A stretch of DNA of 37,975 bases, from positions 1-37,975 of IMG/VR virus record IMGVR_UViG_2534681604_000008; one strand, 5' to 3'. The DNA comes from a virus (Duplodnaviria; Heunggongvirae; Uroviricota; Caudoviricetes). Positions 4,849 through 37,975 of this stretch are shown here, in pieces (position 1 is the first letter of the stretch; each line of letters begins with the position of its first letter). The position numbers and the translations under genes are program-made. A model generated the notes under the pieces. The model had not been told where the DNA came from, did not search any database, and saw only the letters and a list, made by a program, of their open reading frames with translations.

Positions 4849-4983
4849 CTATTTCATTGCGCATAACGCCTCCAGTTGTTTCTTTGCTGCTCTGATTAAT
4901 TGTTTAACTCGGCGTGATAATTCAGATTCGTGCGGGTAGAAAGCGGACATGACGCCGCTACCCGCGAGCTGAAAGTGCATCAT
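4849..4983 (-). CDS. cIII: CIII-like regulator (FtsH inhibitor that stabilises CII)
   Basis: Internal ATG with GGAG RBS gives a 44 aa product, MMHFQLAGSGVMSAFYPHESELSRRVKQLIRAAKKQLE, resembling lambda CIII. The longer track ORF (to 5088) would run through an upstream terminator hairpin. Confidence 0.55.
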   Translation of the reverse strand: MMHFQLAGSGVMSAFYPHESELSRRVKQLIRAAKKQLEALCAMK

Positions 4984-5055
4984 GGGTAACTCCTTATATT
5001 TGATTGCATAACGAAAACGCCTCAAGTGAAGCGTTATTGGTATGCATATAAAAAA

Positions 5056-5080
5056 GCCCTCACACTGGAGGGCAAAGAAG
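5056..5080 (-). terminator. Intrinsic terminator in the pL operon between ral and cIII (tL-like, presumably N-suppressible)
   Basis: Minus strand GCCCTC-CAGTGT-GAGGGC stem-loop followed by TTTTTTAT. Confidence 0.45.
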
Positions 5081-5209
5081 ATTTCCAATAATCAGAACAA
5101 GTCGGCTCCTGTTTAGTTACGAGCGACATTGCTCCGTGTATTCACTCGTTGGAATGAATACACAGTGCAGTGTTTATTCTGTTGTTTATGCCAAAAACAA
5201 AGGCCACTA

Positions 5210-5410
5210 TCAGGCAGCTTTGTTGTTCTGTTTACCAAGTTCTCTGGCAATCATTGCCGTCGTTCGTATTGCCCATTTATCGACATATTTCCCATCCTCC
5301 ATTACAGGAAACATTTCTTCAGGCTTAACCATGCATTCCGATTGCAGCTTGCATCCATTGCATCGCTTGAATTGTCCACACCATTGATTTTTATCAATAG
5401 TCGTAGTCAT
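5210..5410 (-). CDS. ral: Ral-like restriction-alleviation protein
   Basis: 66 aa; position just downstream of N in the pL operon and the size match lambda Ral; sequence identity is from recall. Confidence 0.55.
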   Translation of the reverse strand: MTTTIDKNQWCGQFKRCNGCKLQSECMVKPEEMFPVMEDGKYVDKWAIRTTAMIARELGKQNNKAA

Positions 5411-5488
5411 ACGGATAGTCCTGGTATTGTTCCATCACATCCTGAGGATGCTCTTCGAACTCTTCAAAATCTTCTTCCATATCTCACC

Positions 5489-5815
5489 TCAAATAAGTGG
5501 TTTGCTGCCTAATTTCATTTTCTGGCGACCAACACAAGTCACACCCATTTCACTGCGTGGCTTGCTGTACCATGTGCGCTGATTCTTGCGCTCAATACGT
5601 TGCAGGTTGCTTTCAATCTGTTCGTGGTATTCAGCCAGCACTGTAAGGTCTATCGGATTCAGTGCGCTTTCTACTCGTGATTTCGGTTTGCGATTCAGCG
5701 AGAGAATGGGGCGGTTAACTGGTTTTGCGCTTACCCCAACCAACAGGGGATTTGCTGCTTTCCATTCAGCCTGTTTCTCTGCGCGACGTTCGCGGCGGCG
5801 TGTTTGTGCATCCAT
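5489..5815 (-). CDS. N: Antitermination protein N (lambda-type)
   Basis: Internal start gives MDAQTRRRERRAEKQAEWKAANPLLVGVSAKPVNRPILSLNRKPKSRVESALNPIDLTVLAEYHEQIESNLQRIERKNQRTWYSKP..., essentially lambda N with its arginine-rich motif; AGGAG RBS; nutL upstream. Confidence 0.9.
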   Translation of the reverse strand: MDAQTRRRERRAEKQAEWKAANPLLVGVSAKPVNRPILSLNRKPKSRVESALNPIDLTVLAEYHEQIESNLQRIERKNQRTWYSKPRSEMGVTCVGRQKMKLGSKPLI

Positions 5816-5925
5816 CTGGATTCTCCTGTCAGTTAGCTTTGAGTAACGCGCCGTGATGCTTATCTCCACGGTTGCTGTCTTGCTGCTGCATTTCGCGCTA
5901 CTCAAAGCTTTCTGCTTTGAATGCT

Positions 5926-7903: not shown

Positions 7904-8050
7904 ATGACAAAACAACTCAGTCCTTACCAGGACAAAATTCACAAACACATACTACGTGATCGCTTCCTGTCCAGCTTCAAGCAGCCTGGTCGATTCCGGG
8001 CTGAGTTGGAAAAAGTGAAGCTGATGCAGAAGGAGAAAGGTCATGAGTAA
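7904..8050 (+). CDS. Small hypothetical protein between cII and O (about 48 aa)
   Basis: Hand-found ORF with AGGAG RBS; overlaps the start of O. Coordinates approximate. Confidence 0.35.
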
Positions 8051-8903
8051 TCTTGCAACCGTAACACATTTAAGGCCTTCACAACGGCCTGTGGAGCGTC
8101 GTGTGGCAGAAGTTGAAGATGGTTATACCCGTCTTGCAAATGCCCTGTATGAAGAGCTTATCGGCGCAGATTTAACGAAAAATCAGAGCAAGGTTGCCCA
8201 CGCCATATGCCGTAAAACATACGGCTACGGTAAAAAGATGGATCGCATCTCTGATAGTCAGTTAGCTCAAATTACCAGGCTGCCAAGACAGAAGGTAAAC
8301 AAGGCCAAGAATGAGCTTATCGCGATGAAGGTTATCCTTCGCGAAGGCCAGCAAATCGGGCCTAACAAGAACATCGAGGAATGGCAAATCGAAGGGTGTC
8401 ACTACTCTGGTGATAATGTCACTGCATTGGTGACAAAAAGTGTCACCAAAACGGTGACAGCGCTGTCACCAAAACAGGGACACACAAAAGAAACTATTAC
8501 AAAAGAAAAAAGAAATAATAAAAACACTATGTCCGAAAGTGTTCGGACGGAGTGTGAAAAATCACCTGACCGTCACGAAGAAACCGACAAGGCATTCGAG
8601 GAAATATTCTGGTGTGCAGGCATGCGGAAGGCCGGGAAGAAAAACGCAGCTTCGGCATTCAGAACACAGTTCAGGGAATGGCGTAAAACTACCAGGGGTA
8701 CGGCAAGCGAGTTTGCCACGATGCTGGCAGAAGACATCGCATGCAGGAATGGTAAGCAGTTCGGATTCGACAGGTTGTTACCATCGAGCTACCTGAACGG
8801 TCAGCGCTGGAACGACGAGAAGCCAGAAACTATTCAACCACAATCCAAACCATCATCCGCAATCACCGTATCGAAAACTGGCTACGTGTTTTTCGACAGG
8901 TGA
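8043..8903 (+). CDS. O: Replication initiator O-like protein (contains the origin iterons)
   Basis: 286 aa in the lambda O position downstream of cII; the gene encloses inverted-repeat iterons and an AT-rich stretch, as ori-lambda does within O. Confidence 0.7.
8409..8530. repeat. Origin-like iterons (GGTGA(T/C)A...TGTCAC(C/T) inverted repeats) followed by an AT-rich segment
   Basis: GGTGATAATGTCACT, GGTGACAAAAAGTGTCACC and GGTGACAGCGCTGTCACC in tandem, then an A-rich run at 8485-8530. Confidence 0.6.
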
Positions 8904-9010: not shown

Positions 9011-10891
9011 ATGACGCCAAGTGAACTCAGTGACCTGCTTTGGGCGCAGGTTGACAGGGTGGCTCCGCACCTGTTGCCAAACGGCAAGAAAGAGGGGCAT
9101 GAGTGGGTTGCCGGTAACGTCAACGGTGACAAGGGAAACAGCCTTAAGGTCAACCTTAGCGGCAAGAAAAAATGGGCTGATTTCGCTGAGGGAGACGGCG
9201 GTGACATGCTTGATTTGTGGATGGCATGTCGTGGAATTAACCTGCATCAGGCTATGCAGGAAGCGAAAGCCTTTCTCGGAATCAAGGATGACGATCACCA
9301 TTTCGATGCCAAACGTGAGAAGAAATTCTCCAGACCTGACCGCAAGAAAATCGCCCGCTACGTTACCAGAACAGAATCCCATCTTGAGTACCTGCAATCG
9401 CGTGGCATATCGCCAGAAATCGTAAAGCGCTACGAGGTTGTCAGCGGCAAGGTGTGGAATGGAGAGCGAGAACTGGATGCTCTGGTGATTCCGTACAAAC
9501 GCGATGGTGAGTTGTTGCAGGTAAAGCGAATCAGCACTGAGCGCCCGGACGGGAAGAAAGTCATTATGGCAGAAGGTGATTGCGAACCTTGTCTGTTCGG
9601 ATGGCAGGCTCTGGACGCTGGCGTGAGGGCGGTTGTACTTTGCGAAGGCGAAATTGATTGTATGAGCTATGCGCAATACGGCATCTCGGCGTTATCCGTG
9701 CCGTTTGGTGGCGGGAAAGGCGCTAAGCAACAGTGGATTGAGTTTGAGTATCACAACCTCGACAGGTTTGAGGAAATATTCATCTCGATGGATGTTGATG
9801 ATGTTGGTCGTGAAGCCGCAAGGGAAATCGCAAGCCGACTCGGTGAACATCGTTGCCGTCTTGTTACTCTGCCGTACAAAGACATCAACGAATGCCTGAT
9901 GAACGGTGTTACCGAGGATGAAATCTGGCAGTACATCGGCACGGCATCCTACTTCGATCCTGAAGAACTCTACAGCGCGCGAGAGTTTTACCAGGACACT
10001 ATCAACGCTTTCTACGGCAAGCAGCAGTATCTGTTTAATCCACCGTGGGAATCTCTGGCAGATAAATTCCAGTTCCGTGAGGCAGAGTTGACGCTGGTCA
10101 ATGGTGTGAACGGTCACGGAAAAACGGAGGTTGTCGGGCATATGGCACTTGAGGCAATGCGTCAGGGTGTGAAGACGTGCATCGCGTCACTTGAGCTGAA
10201 GCCTGGTATTCTCCTTAAGCGCCTTACCCGTCAGGCGACGTGCTGCAAGATGCCGCCAGTGCTGGAAATTGACTCTGCATTTAAATTTTATGACGAAAGA
10301 CTTTGGGTGTTTGGCCTGACCGGAACGGCGAAAGCCGACAGGCTGATCGAAATATTCGACTACGCTCGCCGCCGATACGGGATCCAGTTATTCATCATCG
10401 ACAGCCTGATGAAATGTGGCATAGGCGACGATGACTATAACGGGCAGAAGGCGTTTGTTGACTCGATTTGCGACTTCAAAAACAAAACAAACTCCCACGT
10501 CATTCTCGTTACTCACTCGCGAAAAGGAGACAGCGAAGAAAAACCAACCGGGAAAATGGACGTAAAAGGCTCTGGAGCGATAACAGACCTGACAGACAAC
10601 CTTTTCATCATCTGGCGTAACAAGGCTCGCGAGAGAGCGTTACAGAGAGTTCAGAGTGGTGAAAAGATGTCAGAGAAGGACGAACAGCTACTGGCATCTC
10701 CGGCATCTGTTTTGATGCTTGAAAAACAACGTAACGGCGAAGGTTGGGAAGGTGGTGTCCCGTTGTTCCTTGACGAGCAATCGCACCAGTTCCTGCAACT
10801 TGAATCAGGGTCGCCATATAGCTACATCGCTAATATGCCGAAATCGGAATATGACGAGGCGTGGCGACAGGAAAACGTGACGGAGTATTAA
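9011..10891 (+). CDS. Fused DNA primase (Toprim) and DnaB-like/P4-alpha-like replicative helicase
   Basis: 626 aa; Toprim-like acidic motifs (VVLCEGEIDCMS, ISMDVDDVGREAA); Walker A GVNGHGKT and Walker B-like LFIIDS in the C-terminal half; occupies the lambda P position. Confidence 0.8.
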   Translation: MTPSELSDLLWAQVDRVAPHLLPNGKKEGHEWVAGNVNGDKGNSLKVNLSGKKKWADFAEGDGGDMLDLWMACRGINLHQAMQEAKAFLGIKDDDHHFDAKREKKFSRPDRKKIARYVTRTESHLEYLQSRGISPEIVKRYEVVSGKVWNGERELDALVIPYKRDGELLQVKRISTERPDGKKVIMAEGDCEPCLFGWQALDAGVRAVVLCEGEIDCMSYAQYGISALSVPFGGGKGAKQQWIEFEYHNLDRFEEIFISMDVDDVGREAAREIASRLGEHRCRLVTLPYKDINECLMNGVTEDEIWQYIGTASYFDPEELYSAREFYQDTINAFYGKQQYLFNPPWESLADKFQFREAELTLVNGVNGHGKTEVVGHMALEAMRQGVKTCIASLELKPGILLKRLTRQATCCKMPPVLEIDSAFKFYDERLWVFGLTGTAKADRLIEIFDYARRRYGIQLFIIDSLMKCGIGDDDYNGQKAFVDSICDFKNKTNSHVILVTHSRKGDSEEKPTGKMDVKGSGAITDLTDNLFIIWRNKARERALQRVQSGEKMSEKDEQLLASPASVLMLEKQRNGEGWEGGVPLFLDEQSHQFLQLESGSPYSYIANMPKSEYDEAWRQENVTEY

Positions 10892-10918: not shown

Positions 10919-10953
10919 ACAGGCCTGCTGGTAATCGCAGGCCTTTTTATTTG
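10919..10953 (+). terminator. Intrinsic terminator after the replication module (tR2-like)
   Basis: AGGCCTGC-TGGTAATC-GCAGGCCT stem-loop followed by TTTTTATTT. Confidence 0.5.
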
Positions 10954-10967
10954 GGGGAGAGTAAATC

Positions 10968-11191: not shown

Positions 11192-11518
11192 ATGGACGAA
11201 TCAAGAAAGCAGTTTGAAGAATGGTTTGAAAATTACACCGGATGTGATCCTAAAAATAAAATATACGCCAATATGGTTGAGATGTATTGGCAAGCGTGGC
11301 AGGCATCGCGAGCAGCTATTGAACTGGATATCGACTGGCCCGAATCGAATGACGACTTTTGGAAAGATGGTGAAGAAGGTGCTTATGCGATGGGGCATGA
11401 GGATGGGAAGGACAAAACGGTAATTGCAGTGATGAAAGCTATCAGAGCCGCTGGAATTAAAGAGAAGAATTTCGATGAAGCAAATATACATACTTCGCAA
11501 CGAAGCAATCAGAAATAA
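11192..11518 (+). CDS. Hypothetical acidic phage protein (ren position)
   Basis: 108 aa ORF; its 3' end overlaps the ninB start by 44 nt, so the true C-terminus is uncertain. Confidence 0.4.
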   Translation: MDESRKQFEEWFENYTGCDPKNKIYANMVEMYWQAWQASRAAIELDIDWPESNDDFWKDGEEGAYAMGHEDGKDKTVIAVMKAIRAAGIKEKNFDEANIHTSQRSNQK

Positions 11519-11921
11519 CGCCATAGACGCCATTCTCTCACTACCCATCGACGACAAGTCACCCCACGAAGTCCACGTTAGAGAACCCAAACGCAGCAAA
11601 GCGCAGAATGACCGTATGTGGCCGATGCTGAACGATGTTTCGCGTCAGGTGCTATGGCATGGTCAACGGCTGACGCCGGAAGACTGGAAAGACCTGTTCA
11701 CTGCCTTGTGGCTTAAGACCAAAAAAATGGAGCAAAGAAGTGCGCCTGGTATCGACGGTGGCGTTGTTATGCTTGGCGTTCGTACCAGCAAAATGCGAAA
11801 GGCCAGCATGACTGAGCTTATCGAAATCATGTTCTGGTTCGGCTCAGAGCGCAACGTGCGGTGGAGTGATGACTCCCGGCGAGAGTATGAATGGTCACAA
11901 CGAAAAGGGAAGGCTGCATGA
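11475..11921 (+). CDS. ninB: NinB (Orf-family recombination mediator)
   Basis: 148 aa; alignable with lambda NinB in size and motifs (...DVSRQVLWHGQRLTPEDWKDLFTA..., ...RWSDDSRREYEW...), from recall. Confidence 0.8.
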   Translation: MKQIYILRNEAIRNNAIDAILSLPIDDKSPHEVHVREPKRSKAQNDRMWPMLNDVSRQVLWHGQRLTPEDWKDLFTALWLKTKKMEQRSAPGIDGGVVMLGVRTSKMRKASMTELIEIMFWFGSERNVRWSDDSRREYEWSQRKGKAA

Positions 11922-12445
11922 CTATCAAATCAAATACGCCAGCACACGACAAGGACTGCTGGCAAACGCCGCTTTGGCTTTTTGATGCACTGGATATTGA
12001 GTTTGGATTCTGGCTGGATTCGGCAGCGAGCGACAAAAATGCTCTGTGCGCTCACTGGCTAACTGAGGCCGACGACGCGCTCAATTCTGAGTGGGTAAGC
12101 CACGGTGCAATCTGGAATAACCCACCGTACAGCAATATCAGGCCGTGGGTGGAAAAAGCCGCTGAGCAGTGTATACAACAGCGACAGACGGTAGTGATGC
12201 TTGTGCCAGAGGATATGTCTGTCGGATGGTTCAGCAAGGCTCTGGAGAGTGTTGACGAAGTTCGTATTATCACTGATGGACGGATTAATTTTATCGAACC
12301 ATCGACAGGGCTGGAGAAGAAGGGAAACAGCAAAGGCTCCATGCTGCTGATTTGGCGACCGTTCATCAGTCCTCGACGGATGTTTACTACCGTATCCAAA
12401 GCGGCATTGATGGCGATCGGGCAGGGCGTCAGGAGGGCGGCATGA
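11918..12445 (+). CDS. Phage DNA N6-adenine methyltransferase (Dam-like), in the ninC position
   Basis: NPPY catalytic motif ([10 protein letters not shown]); ATGA overlap with the ninB stop; roughly 175 aa from the coupled start. Confidence 0.8.
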
Positions 12446-12618
12446 GGAGACAGCGACGAAGTATCACCGACATAATCTGCGAAAACTGCAAATACCTTCC
12501 AACGAAACGCTCCAGAAATAAACGCAAGCCAATCCCAAAAGAATCTGACGTAAAAACCTTCAACTACACGGCTCACCTGTGGGATATCCGGTGGCTAAGA
12601 CATCGTGCGAGGAAATGA
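12442..12618 (+). CDS. ninE: NinE
   Basis: 58 aa [52 protein letters not shown]... matches recalled lambda NinE; ATGA coupling. Confidence 0.75.
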
Positions 12619-13004
12619 CAATGGATTATTCACAGTTAAGTGATTTTGAAATTAACGTGGCGGTATTCGAAGCCATTCATAACGGATCACCGGATTACAA
12701 AGAAGGTGAGAATGGCGCGATGGTGTTTATCTCATTTGAGGGAGACATTGTAAACGGAGACGCAGTTGAAGTAGAGGTTGAGCGCGGATCCTTTAACCCA
12801 TGCGCAAACCCAGCAGACGCATGGCCGATTATCACTGAAAACAACATCAGCATAATTTTAGACAATCCCTCAATGCCGTGCGCTACAGACAACGCAAGGG
12901 AATTGTTTGATGATGCCGGACCGAATGTTGGTGTCGCATATGACAATCCACTCCGTGCCGCCATGATTGTCTTCCTCATGATGCAGGACGTCAATAATGC
13001 TTAG
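12615..13004 (+). CDS. Nin-region protein (NinX/DUF2591-like, tentative)
   Basis: About 129 aa from the coupled ATG, inserted between ninE and ninF relative to lambda. Confidence 0.5.
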
Positions 13005-13173
13005 CCCATCCCAATCCCTTCAATACCAGAAAGAAAGCGTCGAGCGGGCTTTAACGTGCGCTAACTGCGGTCAGAAGCTGCATGTGCTGGAAGTTCATGT
13101 GTGCTCCGATTGCTGCGCAGAACTGATGAGCGATCCGAATAGCTCAATGTACGAGGAAGAAGACGATGGCTAA
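12997..13173 (+). CDS. ninF: NinF
   Basis: Hand-found 58 aa [39 protein letters not shown]... with a Cys cluster, consistent with lambda NinF; overlaps neighbours at both ends. Confidence 0.7.
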
Positions 13174-13777
13174 ACCAGCGCGAAGACGATGTAAAAACGA
13201 AGAATGTCGGGAATGGTTTCACCCTACATTCGCTAATCAGTGGTGGTGCTCTCCAGAGTGTGGAGCCAAGATAGCACTCGAACGACGAAGTAAAGAACGC
13301 GAAAAAGCGGAAAAAGCAGCAGAGAAGAAACGACGACGAGAGGAGCAGAAACAGAAAGATAAACTTAAGATTCGAAAACTCGCCTTAAAGCCCCGCAGTT
13401 ACTGGATTAAACAAGCCCAACAAGCCGTAAACGCCTTCATCAGAGAAAGAGACCGCGACTTACCATGTATCTCGTGCGGAACGCTCACGTCTGCTCAGTG
13501 GGATGCTGGACATTACCGGACAACTGCTGCGGCACCTCAACTCCGATTTGATGAACGCAATATTCACAAGCAATGCGTGGTGTGCAACCAGCATAAAAGC
13601 GGAAATCTCGTTCCGTATCGCGTCGAACTGATTAACCGAATCGGGCAGGAAGCAGTAGACGAAATCGAATCAAACCATAACCGCCATCGCTGGACTGTCG
13701 AAGAGTGCAAGGCGATCAAGGCAGAGTACCAACAGAAACTCAAAGACCTGCGAAATAGCAGAAGTGAGGCCGCATGA
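13166..13777 (+). CDS. ninG: NinG / Rap (Holliday-junction and D-loop endonuclease)
   Basis: 203 aa with Cys clusters and a basic coiled region; matches the lambda NinG pattern. Confidence 0.85.
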
Positions 13778-13980
13778 CGTTCTCAGTAAAAACCATTCCA
13801 GACATGCTCGTTGAAGCATACGGAAACCAGACAGAAGTGGCACGCAGACTGAAATGTAGTCGCGGCACGGTAAGAAAATACGTTGATGATAAAGACGGGA
13901 AAATGCACGCCATCGTCAACGACGTTCTTATGGTTCATCGCGGATGGAGTGAAAGAGATGCGCTATTACGAAAGAATTGA
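13774..13980 (+). CDS. ninH: NinH
   Basis: 68 aa [39 protein letters not shown]... (lambda NinH, HTH Fis-like). Confidence 0.8.
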
Positions 13981-14623
13981 TGGCAGCAAATACCGAAATA
14001 TTTGGGTAGTTGGCGATCTGCACGGATGCTACACGAACCTGATGAAAAAACTGGAGACGATAGGATTCGACACCAAAAAAGACCTGCTTATCTCGGTTGG
14101 CGATTTGGTCGATCGCGGTACAGAGAACGTCGAATGTCTGGAATTAATCACATTCCCCTGGTTCCGAGCTGTACGTGGAAACCATGAGCAAATGATGATT
14201 GATGGCTTATCAGAGCGTGGAAACGTCAATCACTGGCTGTTTAATGGCGGTGGCTGGTTCTTTAATCTCGATTACGACAAAGAAATTCTGGCTAAAGCTC
14301 TTGCCCATAAAGCAGATGAACTTCCGTTAATCATCGAGCTGGTGAGCAAAGATAAAAAATATGTCATTTGCCACGCCGATTATCCTTGTAACGAATACGA
14401 GTTTGGAAAGTCAGTTGATCATCAGCAGGTAATCTGGAACCGCGAACGAATCAGCAACTCACAAGACGGGATCGTGAAAGAAATCAAAGGAGCGGACACG
14501 TTCATCTTTGGTCATACGCCAGCAGTGAAACCACTCAAGTTTGCCAACCAGATGTATATCGATACCGGCGCAGTGTTCTGCGGAAACCTCACATTGATTC
14601 AGGTACAGGGAGAAGGCGCATGA
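13958..14623 (+). CDS. ninI: NinI Ser/Thr protein phosphatase (lambda PPase family, calcineurin-like)
   Basis: 221 aa from the internal ATG; metallophosphatase motifs GDLHG, GDLVDRG, GNHE. Confidence 0.85.
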
Positions 14624-15243
14624 GACTCGAAAGCGTGGCTAAATTTCATTCGCCAAAAAGCCCGATGATGAGTGACTCACCACGGGCTACGGCTTCTGAC
14701 TCTCTTTCCGGTACTGATGTGATGGCTGCTATGGGGATGGCGCAATCACAAGCCGGATTCGGAATGGCTGCATTCTGCGGTAAGCATGAACTCAGCCAGA
14801 ACGACAAACAAAAGGCTATCAACTATCTGATGCAATTTGCACACAAGGTATCGGGGAAATACCGTGGTGTGGCAAAGCTCGAAGGAAATACTAAGGCAAA
14901 GGTACTGCAAGTGCTCGCAACATTCGCTTATGCGGATTATTGCCGTAGTGCCGCGACGCCGGGCGCAAGATGCAGAGATTGCCACGGTACAGGCCGTTCG
15001 GTTGATATATCAAAAACAGAGCTGTGGGGGAGAGTTGTTGAGAAAGAATGCGGAAGATGCAAAGGTGTCGGCTATTCAAGAATGCCAGCAAGCGCCGCAT
15101 ATCGCGCTGTAACGATGCTAATCCCAAACCTTACTCAACCCACCTGGTCACGCACTGTTAAGCCGCTGTATGACGCTCTGGTGGTGCAATGCCACAAAGA
15201 AGAGTCAATCGCAGACAACATTTTGAATGCGGTCACACGTTAG
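14620..15243 (+). CDS. Q: Late-gene antiterminator Q (lambda-type)
   Basis: 207 aa, near-identical to recalled lambda Q, including the zinc-finger cysteines CRDCHGTG...CGRCKG. Confidence 0.9.
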
Positions 15244-17084: not shown

Positions 17085-17226
17085 TGTCCGCAGTAAACGC
17101 GCATCTCACGCGCATATTAACGAGAGCCTTTCAGTAAGCGGGCCTGAGAATTGCCGTTATAGGTGGCGACCTCTCTCGGGCGGCTTTTCTGTGAGACAGG
17201 CTCACTTTCTAAAAGGTAAAGACGCT

Positions 17227-31864: not shown

Positions 31865-32350
31865 CTACCTGATATTACTGCTACTGTTGCATGTTACCGT
31901 GTTTCCAAATCCTGAATTGCAGTTTGTATATGTGTCAACGCGTGTTGGGTAAGGTTGAGTTATAACAGGCTGGCGCGCTTTTTGCTCGATCGCTTGCATT
32001 GTGTTTACAGCCTGATAATTCAATAAAGCCTGCTGGAATGCTTGGCTTTGTGCTATTTGTTGGGCTTGTTCTTGGCTTTGTAATTGAACATAAAGATTCT
32101 GAAGCTCAAGTCTTGCCTGTGCGTCACTTATCTTGCCTTCATCGACACCTTGCCCGAGCATCTTTGCAGCAAGGACATACAGCTTAGGTGTTGGTGCTGA
32201 TGCCATTCGTGAGTCGTTCTTCACACTGGCATCAAGGCAATTAGCCATATCGCTAAGCTTTTGATAGCGTTGTTCGCAACTTGCTTGATAGTCACTTACT
32301 TTTGCGCATCCAACCAGCAGAAGCGGGATAATTAACAGTGATTTTTTCAT
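31865..32350 (-). CDS. Lipoprotein at the sieA/immI position (candidate superinfection-exclusion factor)
   Basis: 161 aa from the internal ATG with AAGGAG RBS; signal peptide and lipobox MKKSLLIIPLLLVGC; Gln-rich coiled-coil middle; Cys-rich C-terminus; convergent with the late operon. Confidence 0.55.
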   Translation of the reverse strand: MKKSLLIIPLLLVGCAKVSDYQASCEQRYQKLSDMANCLDASVKNDSRMASAPTPKLYVLAAKMLGQGVDEGKISDAQARLELQNLYVQLQSQEQAQQIAQSQAFQQALLNYQAVNTMQAIEQKARQPVITQPYPTRVDTYTNCNSGFGNTVTCNSSSNIR

Positions 32351-32420
32351 ATGGTTAACTCTCCTTAGTTTTTCACAGGATATCATGAAGGCAATGCCAT
32401 TTTAGCCGGAAACTAGATTT

Positions 32421-32720
32421 CTATGTTTCCTTTTTATTATTGCTATACATGGTCTTAAGCGTATCAAAGACAATTTTCTTAACCATCTCAGATTGTTGTT
32501 CTGCCATACGCTCTGCATCGTCAATGTAAACTGATGCAGAGCTTTGTTTAGCCAATGATTCTTCAATCGCTGCAATTATCTCTGAGTTCAGCGACCTGTT
32601 ATTCATCTTCGCGCGCTGTTTAATTTTCGCGTGGAGTTCATGCGGAAGTCTCAAGTGAAACTGCGCCTCGTCGTATTTGCTGTACATCCTTGATGCCTCA
32701 CCAGTTGGGTGGAATGGCAT
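32421..32720 (-). CDS. mnt: Mnt/Arc-family ribbon-helix-helix repressor
   Basis: ...FHLRLPHELHAKIKQRAKMNNRSLNSEIIAAIEESL... and the C-terminus AERMAEQQSEMVKKIVFDTLK closely resemble P22 Mnt (recalled); start may be the internal Met at about 32687. Confidence 0.7.
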   Translation of the reverse strand: MPFHPTGEASRMYSKYDEAQFHLRLPHELHAKIKQRAKMNNRSLNSEIIAAIEESLAKQSSASVYIDDAERMAEQQSEMVKKIVFDTLKTMYSNNKKET

Positions 32721-32808
32721 CGTAACCTACTGGATAAATACTCAATAGTACCATTTCGGTATGCAATCACATCATGGTTGCATCATATCATTCGTCTGGA
32801 GCAATGAA

Positions 32809-35013
32809 ATGTCAGATATCACCGCAAATGTTGTGGTAAGCATGCCTTCGCAACTCTTCACTATGGCGCGTTCTTTTAAAGCCGTAGCCAATGGCAAAAT
32901 TTATATCGGGAAAATTGACACTGATCCGGTAAATCCTGAAAACCGGATTCAGGTTTATGTAGAGAACGAAGACGGCTCTCGCGTTCCTGTTTCGCAACCA
33001 ATCATCATTAACGCCGCTGGTTACCCTGTATATAACGGACAGATTGCCAAGTTCGTAACTGTGCAAGGCCATTCTATGGCTGTGTACGATGCGTATGGTT
33101 CTCAGCAGTTCTATTTTCCTAATGTGCTGAAGTATGACCCGGATCAGTTTCGCCAGCTTGTTGAAGGTAGCAATGGTGCTTATTATATTGGATATAATAA
33201 TACAAACGTTGGCGTATATCTAAATTCTTACGGAGTGGTAGTTACTCCTGGAGATGACCTGAAGGCCGCTCTGGAAAGTGCCAACAATGGTGATACGGTT
33301 ATCGTTTCGGGGGATGTGACACTAACTCAGCCTGTTGTCATTAGCAAAGCGGTTAACATTAAAAGAGTAAACGCCGGCCGTATACTATGGTCTGGAACAG
33401 GCGCGGCAATCAGATATATTCTTGCAGTTAAAAATACTATTACCACCCCAACACAATTCTTACGTAGTCAAAATACAGCAACATTACCAGAGGGTCACGG
33501 TGTGGTCGTGGGGGATATGCTGGAACTCCATTCTACACAAGTCAGATACGCCGACGTCGATGGAGATTACACTTTCGGACAGTTTATTTACGTCGAAAAA
33601 GTGGATGGCAACACGATCACATTCCAGCCAAGTATGACTACCGGATTTACAACCTCAGAGATTATTGTATCGAACTCGTTAGAAGGCATGCAATTCGATG
33701 TAGAGATTATCAATATCAAACCGGCAACAGGCTCTGCTAACGGCATCCTTCTTGATATTCATGGCGCTCGCAATCTTACAGGGAAATTTCGCATTATTGG
33801 GAATGGTGATGAAAACTATGGCTTGGCCTTACAAGGCTATCACTGCAAACTTGATGTTGATGTGTGGAACATCAAATCTGGAAATTTCTCAGTTCCTGGT
33901 TACGGATTTAACTGTGTAGGCGATAGTATATATGTCAATCTGTCAGGTGGTAATTGCCGTCATGTGGGTGAGATTCCCGCAAGGAATGTGGTAAGTAATG
34001 ATATTCATTTCCACTGTAATATCACTAAGACGTTGGGCACTCCGTTATATATTTATAACGTAGGCTGGCACTCAAATGTAATTTATGCAAAGTTAACTGG
34101 TACTATTTCCGGTTCTGGCATGCTTGTTGCTGTGCGCTCTGGCTCCGGGGAAGTTAGTATGGAGTTCAACGGCGCTGACGACGGTTATGACTATGCCGAT
34201 ATCGTTGTAGGAGATATCTACCCAACATCTTTAAAGATCACCAAATGCAACTCTGGTGGCGTGAACGCACGTCGCTCTTTCATCCAGTGGAACGTCAAGG
34301 GACAGGGATCAAACTCAGGTGGATTGATTTTAGATAATAACACCTTCGTCGGGCCAAAGCGCATGATGCGCTTGTACGATGACTCTGGGGCAACGAGCAA
34401 GGCATTCCGAGTATACGCTTCCAATAACAAGGGTTCAGTAGTGGCTATCCACAACCGCGACCTTCTCAACGCCAACGTATACATCGAGCTGTCTAACAAC
34501 ACGTTGACATCATATGGCCTGGCTACATTCGCTGATTACATGGCCGGTGTTGATACAAACGGATGTAAAACATATGAAGTAAGGTCTACTAACAATAACA
34601 TTGACGATTCGGTAACAGCGGGTGTCTTTTCCTTCGATGGTTATATGGATGCGATAGTATTTAGTAGCCATGGAGACAAGAATTCAAACAGACCATTCAT
34701 AAAGCTTACGCCTACATATCTCGGCCGAGTTGATAGGTTTGATATTAACGGGCTTAATACTAATGGACGAATGACACTTACACCAACGGCGGCAACTGTG
34801 TATAACGATATAGGGCAGATTAGATTTTGTCGTATCGGCTTTGACTCTAATCAACCAATAGTAGTCGGCTTGTCTTGGCCTATCGTCTACACTGGAAATT
34901 CTTTCAAAACTACACTTGATGCCACACTTGTTAGTACAAAGCGACCTCAAGCTGGTAATGTCAACCTTTCAGGGAAAGCATTAAACTGGAATGGTACAAA
35001 TATTGCCATTTGA
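32809..35013 (+). CDS. Tailspike: P22-type N-terminal head-binding domain fused to a divergent receptor-binding domain
   Basis: N-terminus [56 protein letters not shown]... matches the P22 gp9 head-binding domain (recalled); the remaining ~600 aa are Gly/Asn/Thr/Val-rich, beta-helix-like, and unlike P22. GGAG RBS. 734 aa. Confidence 0.85.
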
Positions 35014-35017
35014 ATAT

Positions 35018-35045
35018 TTAGGCGGCCTTTGCCGCCTTTTTTTAT
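35018..35045 (+). terminator. Intrinsic terminator between convergent tailspike and gtrC
   Basis: AGGCGGC-CTTT-GCCGCCT stem-loop followed by TTTTTTTATTT. Confidence 0.55.
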
Positions 35046-36700
35046 TTATAATGGGAGTATAATTCTTGATAGAATACTTCTTTTGCGATTTTATGGTTGT
35101 TTTCTGTTTTATCACCTGTAACAGATAATGCGTAATAATCACCAACCTTTTCAATCATGTATTTATTCGAGATGTTCTTGATAGCATGATCTAAAGTCCA
35201 TTTATCTTTGAATAAATACAAAGTTGAAGTATCATAAGCACCATTGTATAAATTAAAGAAGATGGATTTTTGTTGTTGTATCTTTGCATTCAAGCTGAAT
35301 CTTGCCATATAACCAAAATTCATTGATGCTTTATTTTTTGAAGCTATATAACCTATGTTTGACCAATCAAAATAAAAATCAATAGGCATCACAACCTGTA
35401 TTTTATCTTTGTTAGACATCAACGCATTAATATTGGTGTTATCCAAGCCCTTTGATATGTCTGTTATTTCTGAATATCTTTCATGTACTTTTGTAATCAT
35501 TCCATGAATATCATAAAGTTGCACGGCACAAGAAATTGCAACTATGGACAAGCAAAGCGCACGATTAAGATAGTGTCTAATGTAAATAATAAAAAAAGCC
35601 AAAGAAGCATAAATAAAGACCCAAATAAATCTACCTGAAGATCTAAAGATATTTACTGCTTTAGATACAACGCTCGGTAAATTAATGCTGAGAACATTAT
35701 TCCCATTAAAAGAGATGTTGTTTGAAATAGCGAATAGCAAAATCAAGAGACACATAACAAATCCTGGTATGCACCCCTTTCCAAAGCCTCTGTATATTGA
35801 AAAGCAGGCCACACCAACTAATAATACAATGACAACACCTGTGCCGAGATACGCAAAACCCTCATAGTCCAGTTTTTGGTGTGGCAAAGGATTTGTAAAG
35901 TTTGACACCCATGAATACATGGGGTTTATGAAAGCATTAAGATCCATGTGATACAATCCGAAACCACTACCATCAGCTCCATCGGCAATCACAAAATATC
36001 CAAGCGCATACATTGTTCCAGCCAGTGCAAGCATGGCAACAATAAATAATGAGGCCGCGCTGGCTATTGTTTTTTCTTTTTTTATTATCGACGTAGCAAG
36101 ATAAGCAACAAAAACAGAAAGTATCATTCCTGTGATGTAGAAGTGAATGGCAGAACTTATCGCTATCAGTAGCACCCACCTTTTATTGGAATTCTTCATA
36201 CTATAAAGAATGAAAGAGGCAATAATAAGAAAGTGTGCCGACAAAGCAAAGTGGCCCATCATTCTGAAAAGCATAATGGGAGCCAAGCAGAACAGCGCGG
36301 AGGCCACTAAAGAGTAAGGCTTATCATGCGTATTTCTATTTATTAGGTCATATGAAAATACGCCTTGCAGAATACAGCACAGTAATATCCATATACCTGT
36401 GTATTGGAATGTATCTGGAAGAGCGAAAGATACAAATTTGAAAATAATTGCCAGTAAGGGTATGGAGTCAGTAAATACTATTGAGCTACTAACCTCCATT
36501 CCATATGGTTCATTTAAACCAAGCGGCCACTGCAGTATCGGAGTGTTTCTAAAAAAATTCCATCCAAGCCAATGTTGCGCAGCATCTCCACTGCCAAACC
36601 ACTGAATGTTTGTTACATTCAAAATATTCATGCCGCCGCAAGCTATGAATATAAGAAAACCAATCAGTCCAGCTGCGATACGGTAATAGTTATTTTTCAT
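35042..36700 (-). CDS. gtrC: Serotype-specific O-antigen glucosyltransferase (GtrC-type polytopic membrane protein)
   Basis: 552 aa with many hydrophobic helices, visibly AT-rich, third gene of a gtrA-gtrB-gtr(type) operon. Confidence 0.7.
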
Positions 36701-37616
36701 TTTTGTTACCCTTTAACAGGTAGCGAGGCCGACCTTTGCTTTCGATGTAAATCCTTCCGATATACTCACCGAGCACACCAATACCGATAAGTTGCACGCC
36801 TCCAAGGAAGAGGATGGATACAATTAAAGAAGGATATCCTCGAACAGCGTTACCAAACGCCAGCGTGTCTACAATCATCCATGCTCCGTAGATGAATGCG
36901 AGGCCTGCAACAACAAGCCCGATATAGGTCCACATGCGCAGCGGTAAGGTAGAGAAGCTGGTGATACCCTCAAGAGCAAGGTTCCATAACTTCCAACCAT
37001 TAAATTTTGTACTGCCTGCAACGCGTTCAGCGCGGGCATATTCAACAACATCCGTGCGACCACCAACCCAACTCAGAACCCCCTTCATGAAGAGGTTTCT
37101 CTCTGGCATGAGCTTAATGTTTTCCACCACCTCGCGAGACATCAAACGGAAGTCGCCAACGTTTTCCTCGATCTGCGGGTTGCTGATTTTGTTGTGCAGC
37201 TTATAGAACCACTCTGCAGTCTTACGCTTCAGCCTTCCATCGGTGGAGCGGTCAGAGCGCTTGGCCAGTACCATATCAGCACCTGCCTGCCACTTTTCAA
37301 TAAGATGAGGAATAACCTCAATCGGGTCTTGCAGGTCAACATCAATTGGGATTATCGCATCCCCGGTTGCATGGTCTAACCCTGCAAACAATGCGGGTTC
37401 TTTACCAAAGTTTCGTGTAAATGACAGCGGAACCACTAGAGGATCTGAAACAGCCAGAGCATTAATAATTGACTCCGTAGCGTCTTTGCTACCGTCATTT
37501 ATGAAAACAATTTCCACTTCATATGGCTTCAACTCTTCGAATTCTCGTACCGTTTTATAAAAAATTGGTATCGCTTCTTCTTCATTGAAGACAGGAACTA
37601 CAAGAGATATCTTCAT
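36690..37616 (-). CDS. gtrB: Bactoprenol glucosyltransferase GtrB (GT2 family)
   Basis: 308 aa; GT2 motifs ([23 protein letters not shown]) and two C-terminal TM helices. Confidence 0.9.
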
Positions 37617-37975
37617 TTCGCATCCCTAAAGACAATGAACTTTGAATAGACGAAACCGCACACCAGGCTGATGGCGGAGAAGATGACAAGAGTGACAATT
37701 GGAGGAAGTGAACATCTATCAGCAGCCCATCCAACAGTTGCACTCAGTGTTCCCATGAACCCGACATATAACATGTAGCGCATCGTTGTAGTTGATGCTT
37801 TGAATGTGAATTTTGCATTCGCGAAGAAGCTAAAACTCACAGCCACAACAAAACCTGCGAAGTTTGCCAGAGCCTGATTGGTATGCGCGGCATAGATACA
37901 AACACCAAAAACCACCCAGTGTATAAGGGTGTTCAGCACACCAATAGAGGTGTACTTTGCAAATAGCTTTAACAT
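37613..37975 (-). CDS. gtrA: GtrA flippase subunit
   Basis: 120 aa, four hydrophobic helices, GtrA-like; start codon at the window edge. Confidence 0.8.

Follow-up and report, generated by a model that had tools for sequence, protein, structure and literature searches.

The window analysed here is a stretch of 37,975 nucleotides from an Sf6/HK620-like, P22-type temperate phage of E. coli or Shigella whose early region is lambda-like. On its plus strand, at positions 11918-12445 (ATG at 11918, TGA at 12443-12445), lies a gene for a 175-aa orphan N6-adenine DNA methyltransferase of the PF05869/TIGR01712 family, which we refer to as dam. The gene is tightly packed between ninB and ninE. Its ATG overlaps the stop codon of ninB (11919-11921) and its TGA overlaps the start of ninE (12442), and both junctions have the form ATGA. 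A ribosome-binding stretch, AAGGGAAGG, is found upstream of the ATG at 11918. An alternative start at ATG 11891, which would give a product of 184 aa, was rejected on the grounds that the homologues start at the M of MT(I/L)KSNTP. The longer form is also disfavoured by the database annotation, which has the 175-aa form, and by the fact that it is the ATG at 11918 that gives the ATGA overlap with ninB.

The dam ORF is a real, intact gene under purifying selection. When it was compared with the dam gene of the Stx2 phage VT2-Sakai, all nucleotide differences (7/7) were at third codon positions and all were synonymous, and in a comparison with a Pectobacterium homologue 97 of the 147 differences were at third codon positions of the dam frame. 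The third-position substitution bias was strong down to 70% nucleotide identity. An antisense ORF of 174 aa is present on the minus strand at 12052-12576, within dam and ninE, and along its entire length it matches phrog_37455 (E 2e-118), a PHROG of unknown function. We rejected this ORF as a gene, as 3-4 stops break it in the homologues from Pectobacterium and Yersinia and the substitutions track the dam frame. It has neither Pfam-independent support nor a selection signature of its own, and was therefore treated as an annotation artefact; the phrog_37455 family probably consists of mis-annotated antisense ORFs.

Profile searches assigned the Dam protein to its family over practically its whole length. 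The match to Pfam PF05869 'Dam' (E 6.4e-65, 218.4 bits, cut-off 28.1) extends over profile positions 1-167 of 169, and that to the NCBIfam equivalog TIGR01712 phage_N6A_met (265.9 bits, cut-off 97.05) over positions 1-165 of 165. PHROGs assigns the protein as a DNA methyltransferase, and its best PADLOC matches are to orphan methyltransferase. A previous interpretation of this DNA, made from the letters alone and referred to below as the sequence-only reading, had proposed an adenine methyltransferase with an NPPY motif at 11918-12445, and these results bear it out: the coordinates are exact, the gene is intact and both family models are matched in full. Three motifs are recognizable in the protein, WQTP at aa 15-18, FWLDSAA at aa 31-37 and NPPYS at aa 68-72 (NPPY at 68-71). 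In an alignment of 24 sequences, with homologues at about 60-100% identity, NPPYS (N68-P69-P70-Y71-S72, motif IV with the consensus (D/N)PP(Y/F/W)) is invariant, so that the catalytic motif is intact on alignment, as the sequence-only reading had supposed. F31, L33, D34 and A36 of the F-x-L-D-x-A(-A) stretch are likewise invariant in this alignment, and so are T17 and P18. A sequence search of the Protein Data Bank with Dam returned nothing significant (best E 0.24), and the structure was predicted instead. The protein thus combines a conserved N-terminal motif of the AdoMet-binding type with, according to the predicted structure, a class I methyltransferase fold. Neither the alignment nor the predicted structure revealed an obvious separate DNA target-recognition domain within the 175 aa. 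The genes flanking dam are ninB and ninE and no nuclease gene adjoins it, an arrangement that is not that of a type II restriction-modification system. Taken together, the data directly support assigning Dam as an AdoMet-dependent N6-adenine methyltransferase whose active site is intact, and as an orphan without a partner nuclease.

Several other enzymes that share the name or the activity can be told apart from this protein. Among them are HP1 Dam and T1 Dam (M.T1), which are older members of the same PF05869/TIGR01712 family, small single-domain proteins with an NPPY motif, and which methylate GATC. The Dams of T1-like phages are nevertheless distant, with roughly 32-37% identity by tblastn, and the genome contexts in HP1 and T1 differ from that described here. 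E. coli Dam and T4 Dam, of the alpha class (PF02086), are proteins of about 260-280 aa, as against 175 aa here, and have a separate DNA-recognition domain. The Pfam search gave no PF02086 (MethyltransfD12) match for the phage protein, which consequently does not belong to the canonical EcoDam/T4Dam class, and identity to these enzymes in structural alignment was 5-12%. The GATC specificity common to phage Dam and to the host and T4 enzymes is convergent, and the phage protein is a 'Dam' by function only. It also lies outside the MT-A70 prophage methyltransferases, since no MT-A70 Pfam match was obtained and its motif is NPPY rather than DPPW. M.EcoGV and M.EcoPA8orf6770P, which are prophage 'Dam homologues' of E. 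coli as well, differ from it in family, motif and position (near int). M.EcoPA8orf6770P, an MT-A70 enzyme, depends on a partner subunit, and its substrate is claimed to be rRNA (PMC10810198). We considered whether Dam could be the prophage 'rRNA methyltransferase' of that study and rejected this, as the protein in question is the MT-A70 enzyme with DPPW. In a paper on the non-specific adenine methyltransferases Hia5 and Hin1523, VT2, HP1 and T1 are absent and no relatedness is claimed.

The target site, which the sequence-only reading had left blank, can be proposed from the identity of the protein. Dam is identical in 175 of 175 residues to the dam product of VT2-Sakai (BAA94133.1), an enzyme named M.EcoVT2Dam in REBASE. 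The gene has the same ninB-dam-ninE position in VT2-Sakai (VT2-Sa), and only the phage backbone differs, being here that of an Sf6/HK620-like P22-type podovirus with gtrABC and without stx. M.EcoVT2Dam is reported as 'known to target 5'-GATC-3'' in PMC6602927, where Radlinska & Bujnicki 2001 (pmid 11720311) is cited for this. Judging from the 100% identity and the published target of M.EcoVT2Dam, the enzyme encoded here would methylate the adenine of GATC. The specificity of M.EcoVT2Dam, as we have it, comes from a secondary citation and was probably established by over-expression from a plasmid, under which specificity can be exaggerated or distorted; a caution on over-expression and methyltransferase specificity was raised in PMC10810198.

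Close relatives of the gene are abundant. The M.EcoVT2Dam protein also occurs in Phi24B, Min27 and Stx2 phage II, and at 99% identity in HK97 and 933W-type phages, in agreement with a report of the same protein at 99-100% in Phi24B, Min27, HK97, 933W-type and other phages (PMC3342100). By tblastn, 201 phage records had at least 99% identity to Dam and 1908 phage records contained a member of the family, and of the 5426 complete E. coli genomes compared by megablast, 1566 (~29%) carried dam, with up to 5 copies per genome. Among the matches listed, including those in Nissle 1917 and the type strain ATCC 11775, dam was located between ninB and ninE. The phage dam gene, its site beside ninB and its GATC specificity have been known since about 2000 from VT2-Sakai, 933W, HK97 and relatives, and the gene is very common. 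The practical value of the present assignment is a correct annotation, for which NCBI already has an equivalog model. Inactive copies occur too. The allele in Stx2a_F349 carries a pseudogene annotation, and truncated or fused variants are numerous among E. coli proteins. In Shigella phage Sf6 (NC_005344) we observed a dam gene, 98.9% identical, at 31912-32436, in the 520 bp without annotation that separate ninB (gene 50) from ninE (gene 52). The Sf6 copy has an in-frame stop at codon 50 and is a pseudogene, which accounts for the lack of a RefSeq CDS there. As dam has been inactivated in both Sf6 and Stx2a_F349, any benefit that it confers is conditional.

We then considered the genomic context of dam. 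It is preceded by ninB (11475-11921, +), which encodes the Orf recombination mediator, and followed on the same strand by ninE (12442-12618), ninX (12615-13004), ninF (12997-13173), ninG (13166-13777), ninH (13774-13980), the phosphatase gene ninI (13958-14623) and the antiterminator gene Q (14620-15243). In lambda the order is ninB-ninC-ninD-ninE-ninF-ninG-ninH-ninI-Q; here ninC and ninD are absent, while dam and ninX, a P22-type gene (PF10765) that stands between ninE and ninF and is absent from lambda, have been added. In gene order and content the region is thus a mosaic variant of that of lambda. The NinE, NinF, NinG, NinH, NinI and Q proteins share 85-100% identity with those of lambda, whereas ninB is an HK97/933W-type allele, with 42% identity between its product and lambda NinB. 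From 12447, within ninE, the DNA is again homologous to lambda at the nucleotide level (98%), and this position marks the right mosaic boundary of a ninB-dam module. Since ninB is divergent from lambda, ninE to Q are lambda-like and Stx phages share the ninB-dam-ninE block at 97% identity, ninB and dam can be regarded as one mosaic module. The lambda-like ninB, E, F, G, H and I listed in the sequence-only reading are all present, but that list took ninB as lambda-like in spite of its 42% identity, overlooked ninX, and did not register that ninD is missing as well as ninC; the start of ninI is at 13958.

The same reading had described the methyltransferase gene as a replacement of ninC. It does occupy the slot between ninB and ninE, but in lambda this slot holds two genes, ninC (PAPS-reductase-like) and ninD, whose products are unrelated to Dam, and the occupants are not mutually exclusive. 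In Salmonella phage vB_SosS_Oslo the order is ninB-dam-ninC-ninD-ninE-ninX, with dam, ninC and ninD in tandem, and dam is therefore an independent cassette rather than an allele of ninC. More distant enterobacterial prophages have the gene elsewhere in the early region: the Pectobacterium copy precedes ninF/ninG/Q, that of Edwardsiella precedes rusA, and the Yersinia copy lies at the end of the exo-xis side. These arrangements fit a mobile, dispensable mosaic cassette that travels with the HK97/933W-type ninB.

Upstream of this region, at 10921-10954 (+), is a strong intrinsic terminator that is base-for-base the same as lambda 40596-40629, in the ren-ninB gap, and as the tR2 annotated in Sf6. 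Two small ORFs lie between tR2 and ninB. The window also encodes an N antiterminator of the lambda type (5489-5815, -), which transcription requires in order to pass tR2 and enter the nin region. Being located downstream of a tR2 identical to that of lambda, dam is, by established lambda biology, an N-dependent delayed-early lytic gene. When the region was scanned for a promoter private to dam, 12 promoter-like sites were obtained against 12.3 expected, which is the chance level. Data from the literature on the identical gene of Phi24B agree with lytic expression: its expression follows the lytic cycle and changed significantly on induction (PMC3342100). In the same study, four of the five tested genes that had been identified with antibodies were linked to the lytic cycle, the named exception being lom (PMC3342100). 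We suggest that dam would be transcribed with the rightward nin operon and made only after N antitermination, during infection or induction, and that its translation would be coupled to that of ninB and ninE through the ATGA overlaps.

Two other parts of the window bear on what the enzyme may do. In the leftward operon, between N and cIII, lies ral (5210-5410, -), which encodes a restriction-alleviation protein (PF11058). Its product matches the Pfam Ral model (E 1.6e-48) over positions 1-66 of 66 and is identical to lambda Ral in 66 of 66 residues, so that the Ral-like gene of the pL operon noted in the sequence-only reading is lambda Ral itself. Alleviation of type I restriction is the established function of Ral. 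The N-ral-cIII segment (4849-5905, -) is compact, with 78 bp from N to ral and 121 bp from ral to cIII, and is without the lambda genes sieB, orf28 and ea10. At the right end of the window, a serotype-conversion operon at 35042-37975 (-), whose promoter lies just outside the window, comprises genes for GtrA (37613-37975, -), the glycosyltransferase GtrB (36690-37616, -) and, at the position of GtrC, a DUF6311 protein of 552 aa (35042-36700, -). The gtr operon of P22 is phase-variable through Dam and OxyR (PMC8022706). A gtr operon and a GATC methylase of the phage's own make a curious combination in one genome.

We consider it likely, with a probability of about 0.85, that the gene encodes a lambdoid-phage Dam of the HP1/T1/VT2 family, that is, an orphan GATC methyltransferase carried on a mosaic cassette, expressed lytically behind tR2, and having a top-up role. 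Dam would methylate the GATC adenine with S-adenosylmethionine and by means of its NPPY catalytic loop, and its most likely role would be to top up GATC methylation on fast-replicating phage DNA at times when host Dam is limiting. This proposal was motivated by two published observations, namely that the virions of P22, lambda and phage L contain DNA undermethylated at Dam sites (PMC8022706) and that endogenous Dam is rate-limiting for high-copy DNA (bioRxiv 10.1101/2020.06.22.160242). Lambda has no homologue of dam. With the additional activity, progeny genomes, which have 72 GATC sites in the window, would become fully methylated; protection from methylation-sensitive nucleases whose sites overlap GATC, or from MutH/SeqA action, would be a consequence of full methylation. 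What phage GATC methylases do in hosts that are themselves Dam-positive is a long-recognised question, and the function of phage Dam enzymes has been described as 'still not well understood' (PMC7556043). The 72 GATC sites compare with 179 expected (observed/expected 0.40), and the corresponding ratios are 0.55 in lambda, which is without dam, and 0.49 in Sf6, in which dam is broken; a compositional GATC signature of dam carriage is not visible in these three genomes, a sample that is too small for the purpose. Depletion of palindromic tetramers in the window is seen for CTAG as well (4 sites vs 34 expected, 0.12).

Alternatively, the benefit of full methylation may lie in anti-restriction, with Dam pre-modifying GATC against methylation-sensitive endonucleases (MboI/DpnII-like enzymes, or type IIG enzymes with sites containing GATC) and thereby complementing Ral. 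Such a role is possible and compatible with the top-up role rather than exclusive of it, but we regard it as a minority prospect, perhaps one chance in a few. It is consistent with the orphan status of the enzyme, which has no cognate nuclease, and with the presence of an intact Ral. Phage Dam enzymes have been described as anti-restriction genes acting against type II systems (bioRxiv 10.1101/2020.06.22.160242), and since host Dam alone leaves virion DNA incompletely methylated (PMC8022706), extra activity could matter. However, E. coli and Shigella hosts are Dam-positive, so that methylation-sensitive systems cleaving GATC should be rare in them, and no restriction system is known from the present data to be blocked by Dam. 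GATC methylation also gives no protection from the type I systems targeted by Ral, and it would sensitise DNA to methyl-dependent enzymes of the DpnI type. The statement in PMC7556043 quoted above applies here as well. Of the two anti-restriction functions that the sequence-only reading had attributed to the phage, Ral is therefore genuine, while the part assigned to Dam is unproven, its GATC specificity duplicating that of host Dam.

It could also be argued that dam is a nearly neutral passenger that is carried along with the ninB module and makes no measurable contribution, which we think improbable. The nin-region genes are non-essential, and the nonsense allele in Sf6, the pseudogene in Stx2a_F349 and the many truncated or fused variants in E. 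coli would all be accounted for. On the other hand, a passenger would not be expected to show the strong third-position bias that persists to 70% nucleotide identity, nor catalytic motifs that are invariant across enterobacterial prophages of many genera in which the gene sits in differing contexts.

A more speculative idea is that Dam acts in phage-host conflict, either through a burst of activity at induction that overrides protected GATC sites, for instance at a gtr promoter controlled by Dam and OxyR, or by triggering abortive-infection systems such as retron-Sen2. We consider this very unlikely, and nothing in our data supports it for the Dam family; were it true, the action of Dam as a trigger of defence by retron-Sen2 would explain the repeated loss of dam, as in Sf6 and Stx2a_F349.

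Slightly less probable still is a role as an epigenetic regulator in the lysogen, where low expression from the prophage would alter protected GATC sites, such as those of the phage's own phase-variable gtr operon. Two observations could be taken in its favour: Phi24B Dam was found in lysogen cultures by antibody screening (PMC3342100), and the window has a gtrABC-like operon, the corresponding operon of P22 being under the control of Dam and OxyR (PMC8022706). The expression data given above speak against it, as dam is behind tR2 in a rightward operon that is repressed in the lysogen, promoter-like sites are at the chance level (12 vs 12.3) and expression of the Phi24B gene is linked to the lytic cycle (PMC3342100). 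More directly, the STEC strain 95NR1 has two copies of M.EcoVT2Dam and its sibling 95JB1 has none, and in both strains 99.9% of GATC sites were methylated, with 28 unmethylated sites each (PMC6602927). The only additional motif in that comparison was CRARCAG, attributed to a type IIG enzyme (PMC6602927). The comparison of 95NR1 and 95JB1, which in effect amounts to the methylome experiment suggested in the sequence-only reading, argues against an effect of Dam on the lysogen epigenome. The possibility raised in the sequence-only reading, that the methylase could affect host gene regulation in the lysogen, is thus not supported, in view of operon position, lytic expression in Phi24B and the equal numbers of unmethylated GATC sites in the two strains, and its expectation of a methylation motif beyond the host background fares no better, as none was attributable to M.EcoVT2Dam between them (PMC6602927). 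With GATC as the target, it follows that comparing the methylomes of a lysogen and a cured strain would show nothing new.

Equally improbable is a natural substrate or specificity other than GATC DNA, such as relaxed adenine methylation or RNA. In its favour, the 175-aa protein is without an obvious separate target-recognition domain. M.EcoPA8orf6770P, despite its annotation as a DNA adenine methylase, has a preference for 16S rRNA in the complex with its partner, and GATC methylation by the related M.EcoGV is seen only on over-production (PMC10810198). Against it, M.EcoPA8orf6770P is the MT-A70 protein with DPPW whereas Dam is a PF05869 protein with NPPY and no MT-A70 match, the annotation of VT2-Sakai dam names HP1 Orf13 and T1 M.T1 as relatives, the phages from which Dam genes have been cloned include HP1 (PMC7556043), and no additional motif attributable to the enzyme appeared in the strain with two copies (PMC6602927).

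Some further features of the phage backbone were noted in the course of this analysis. The tailspike gene (32761-35013, +) encodes a protein of 750 aa of which Pfam recognises only the N-terminal P22-type head-binding domain, the receptor-binding part giving no Pfam family match. Directly after the lysis cassette, at 17191-17715 (+), there is a gene for a 174-aa protein with T5orf172/MUG113 (GIY-YIG-like) domains, which has a weak PADLOC match to the candidate system PDC-S57 (E 8e-6). In the replication module, an O-like initiator (8043-8903) is followed, in the place where lambda has P, by a 626-aa fusion of a Toprim primase and a DnaB-like helicase (9011-10891, +), a type of protein that is also found in phages Oslo and epsilon34.
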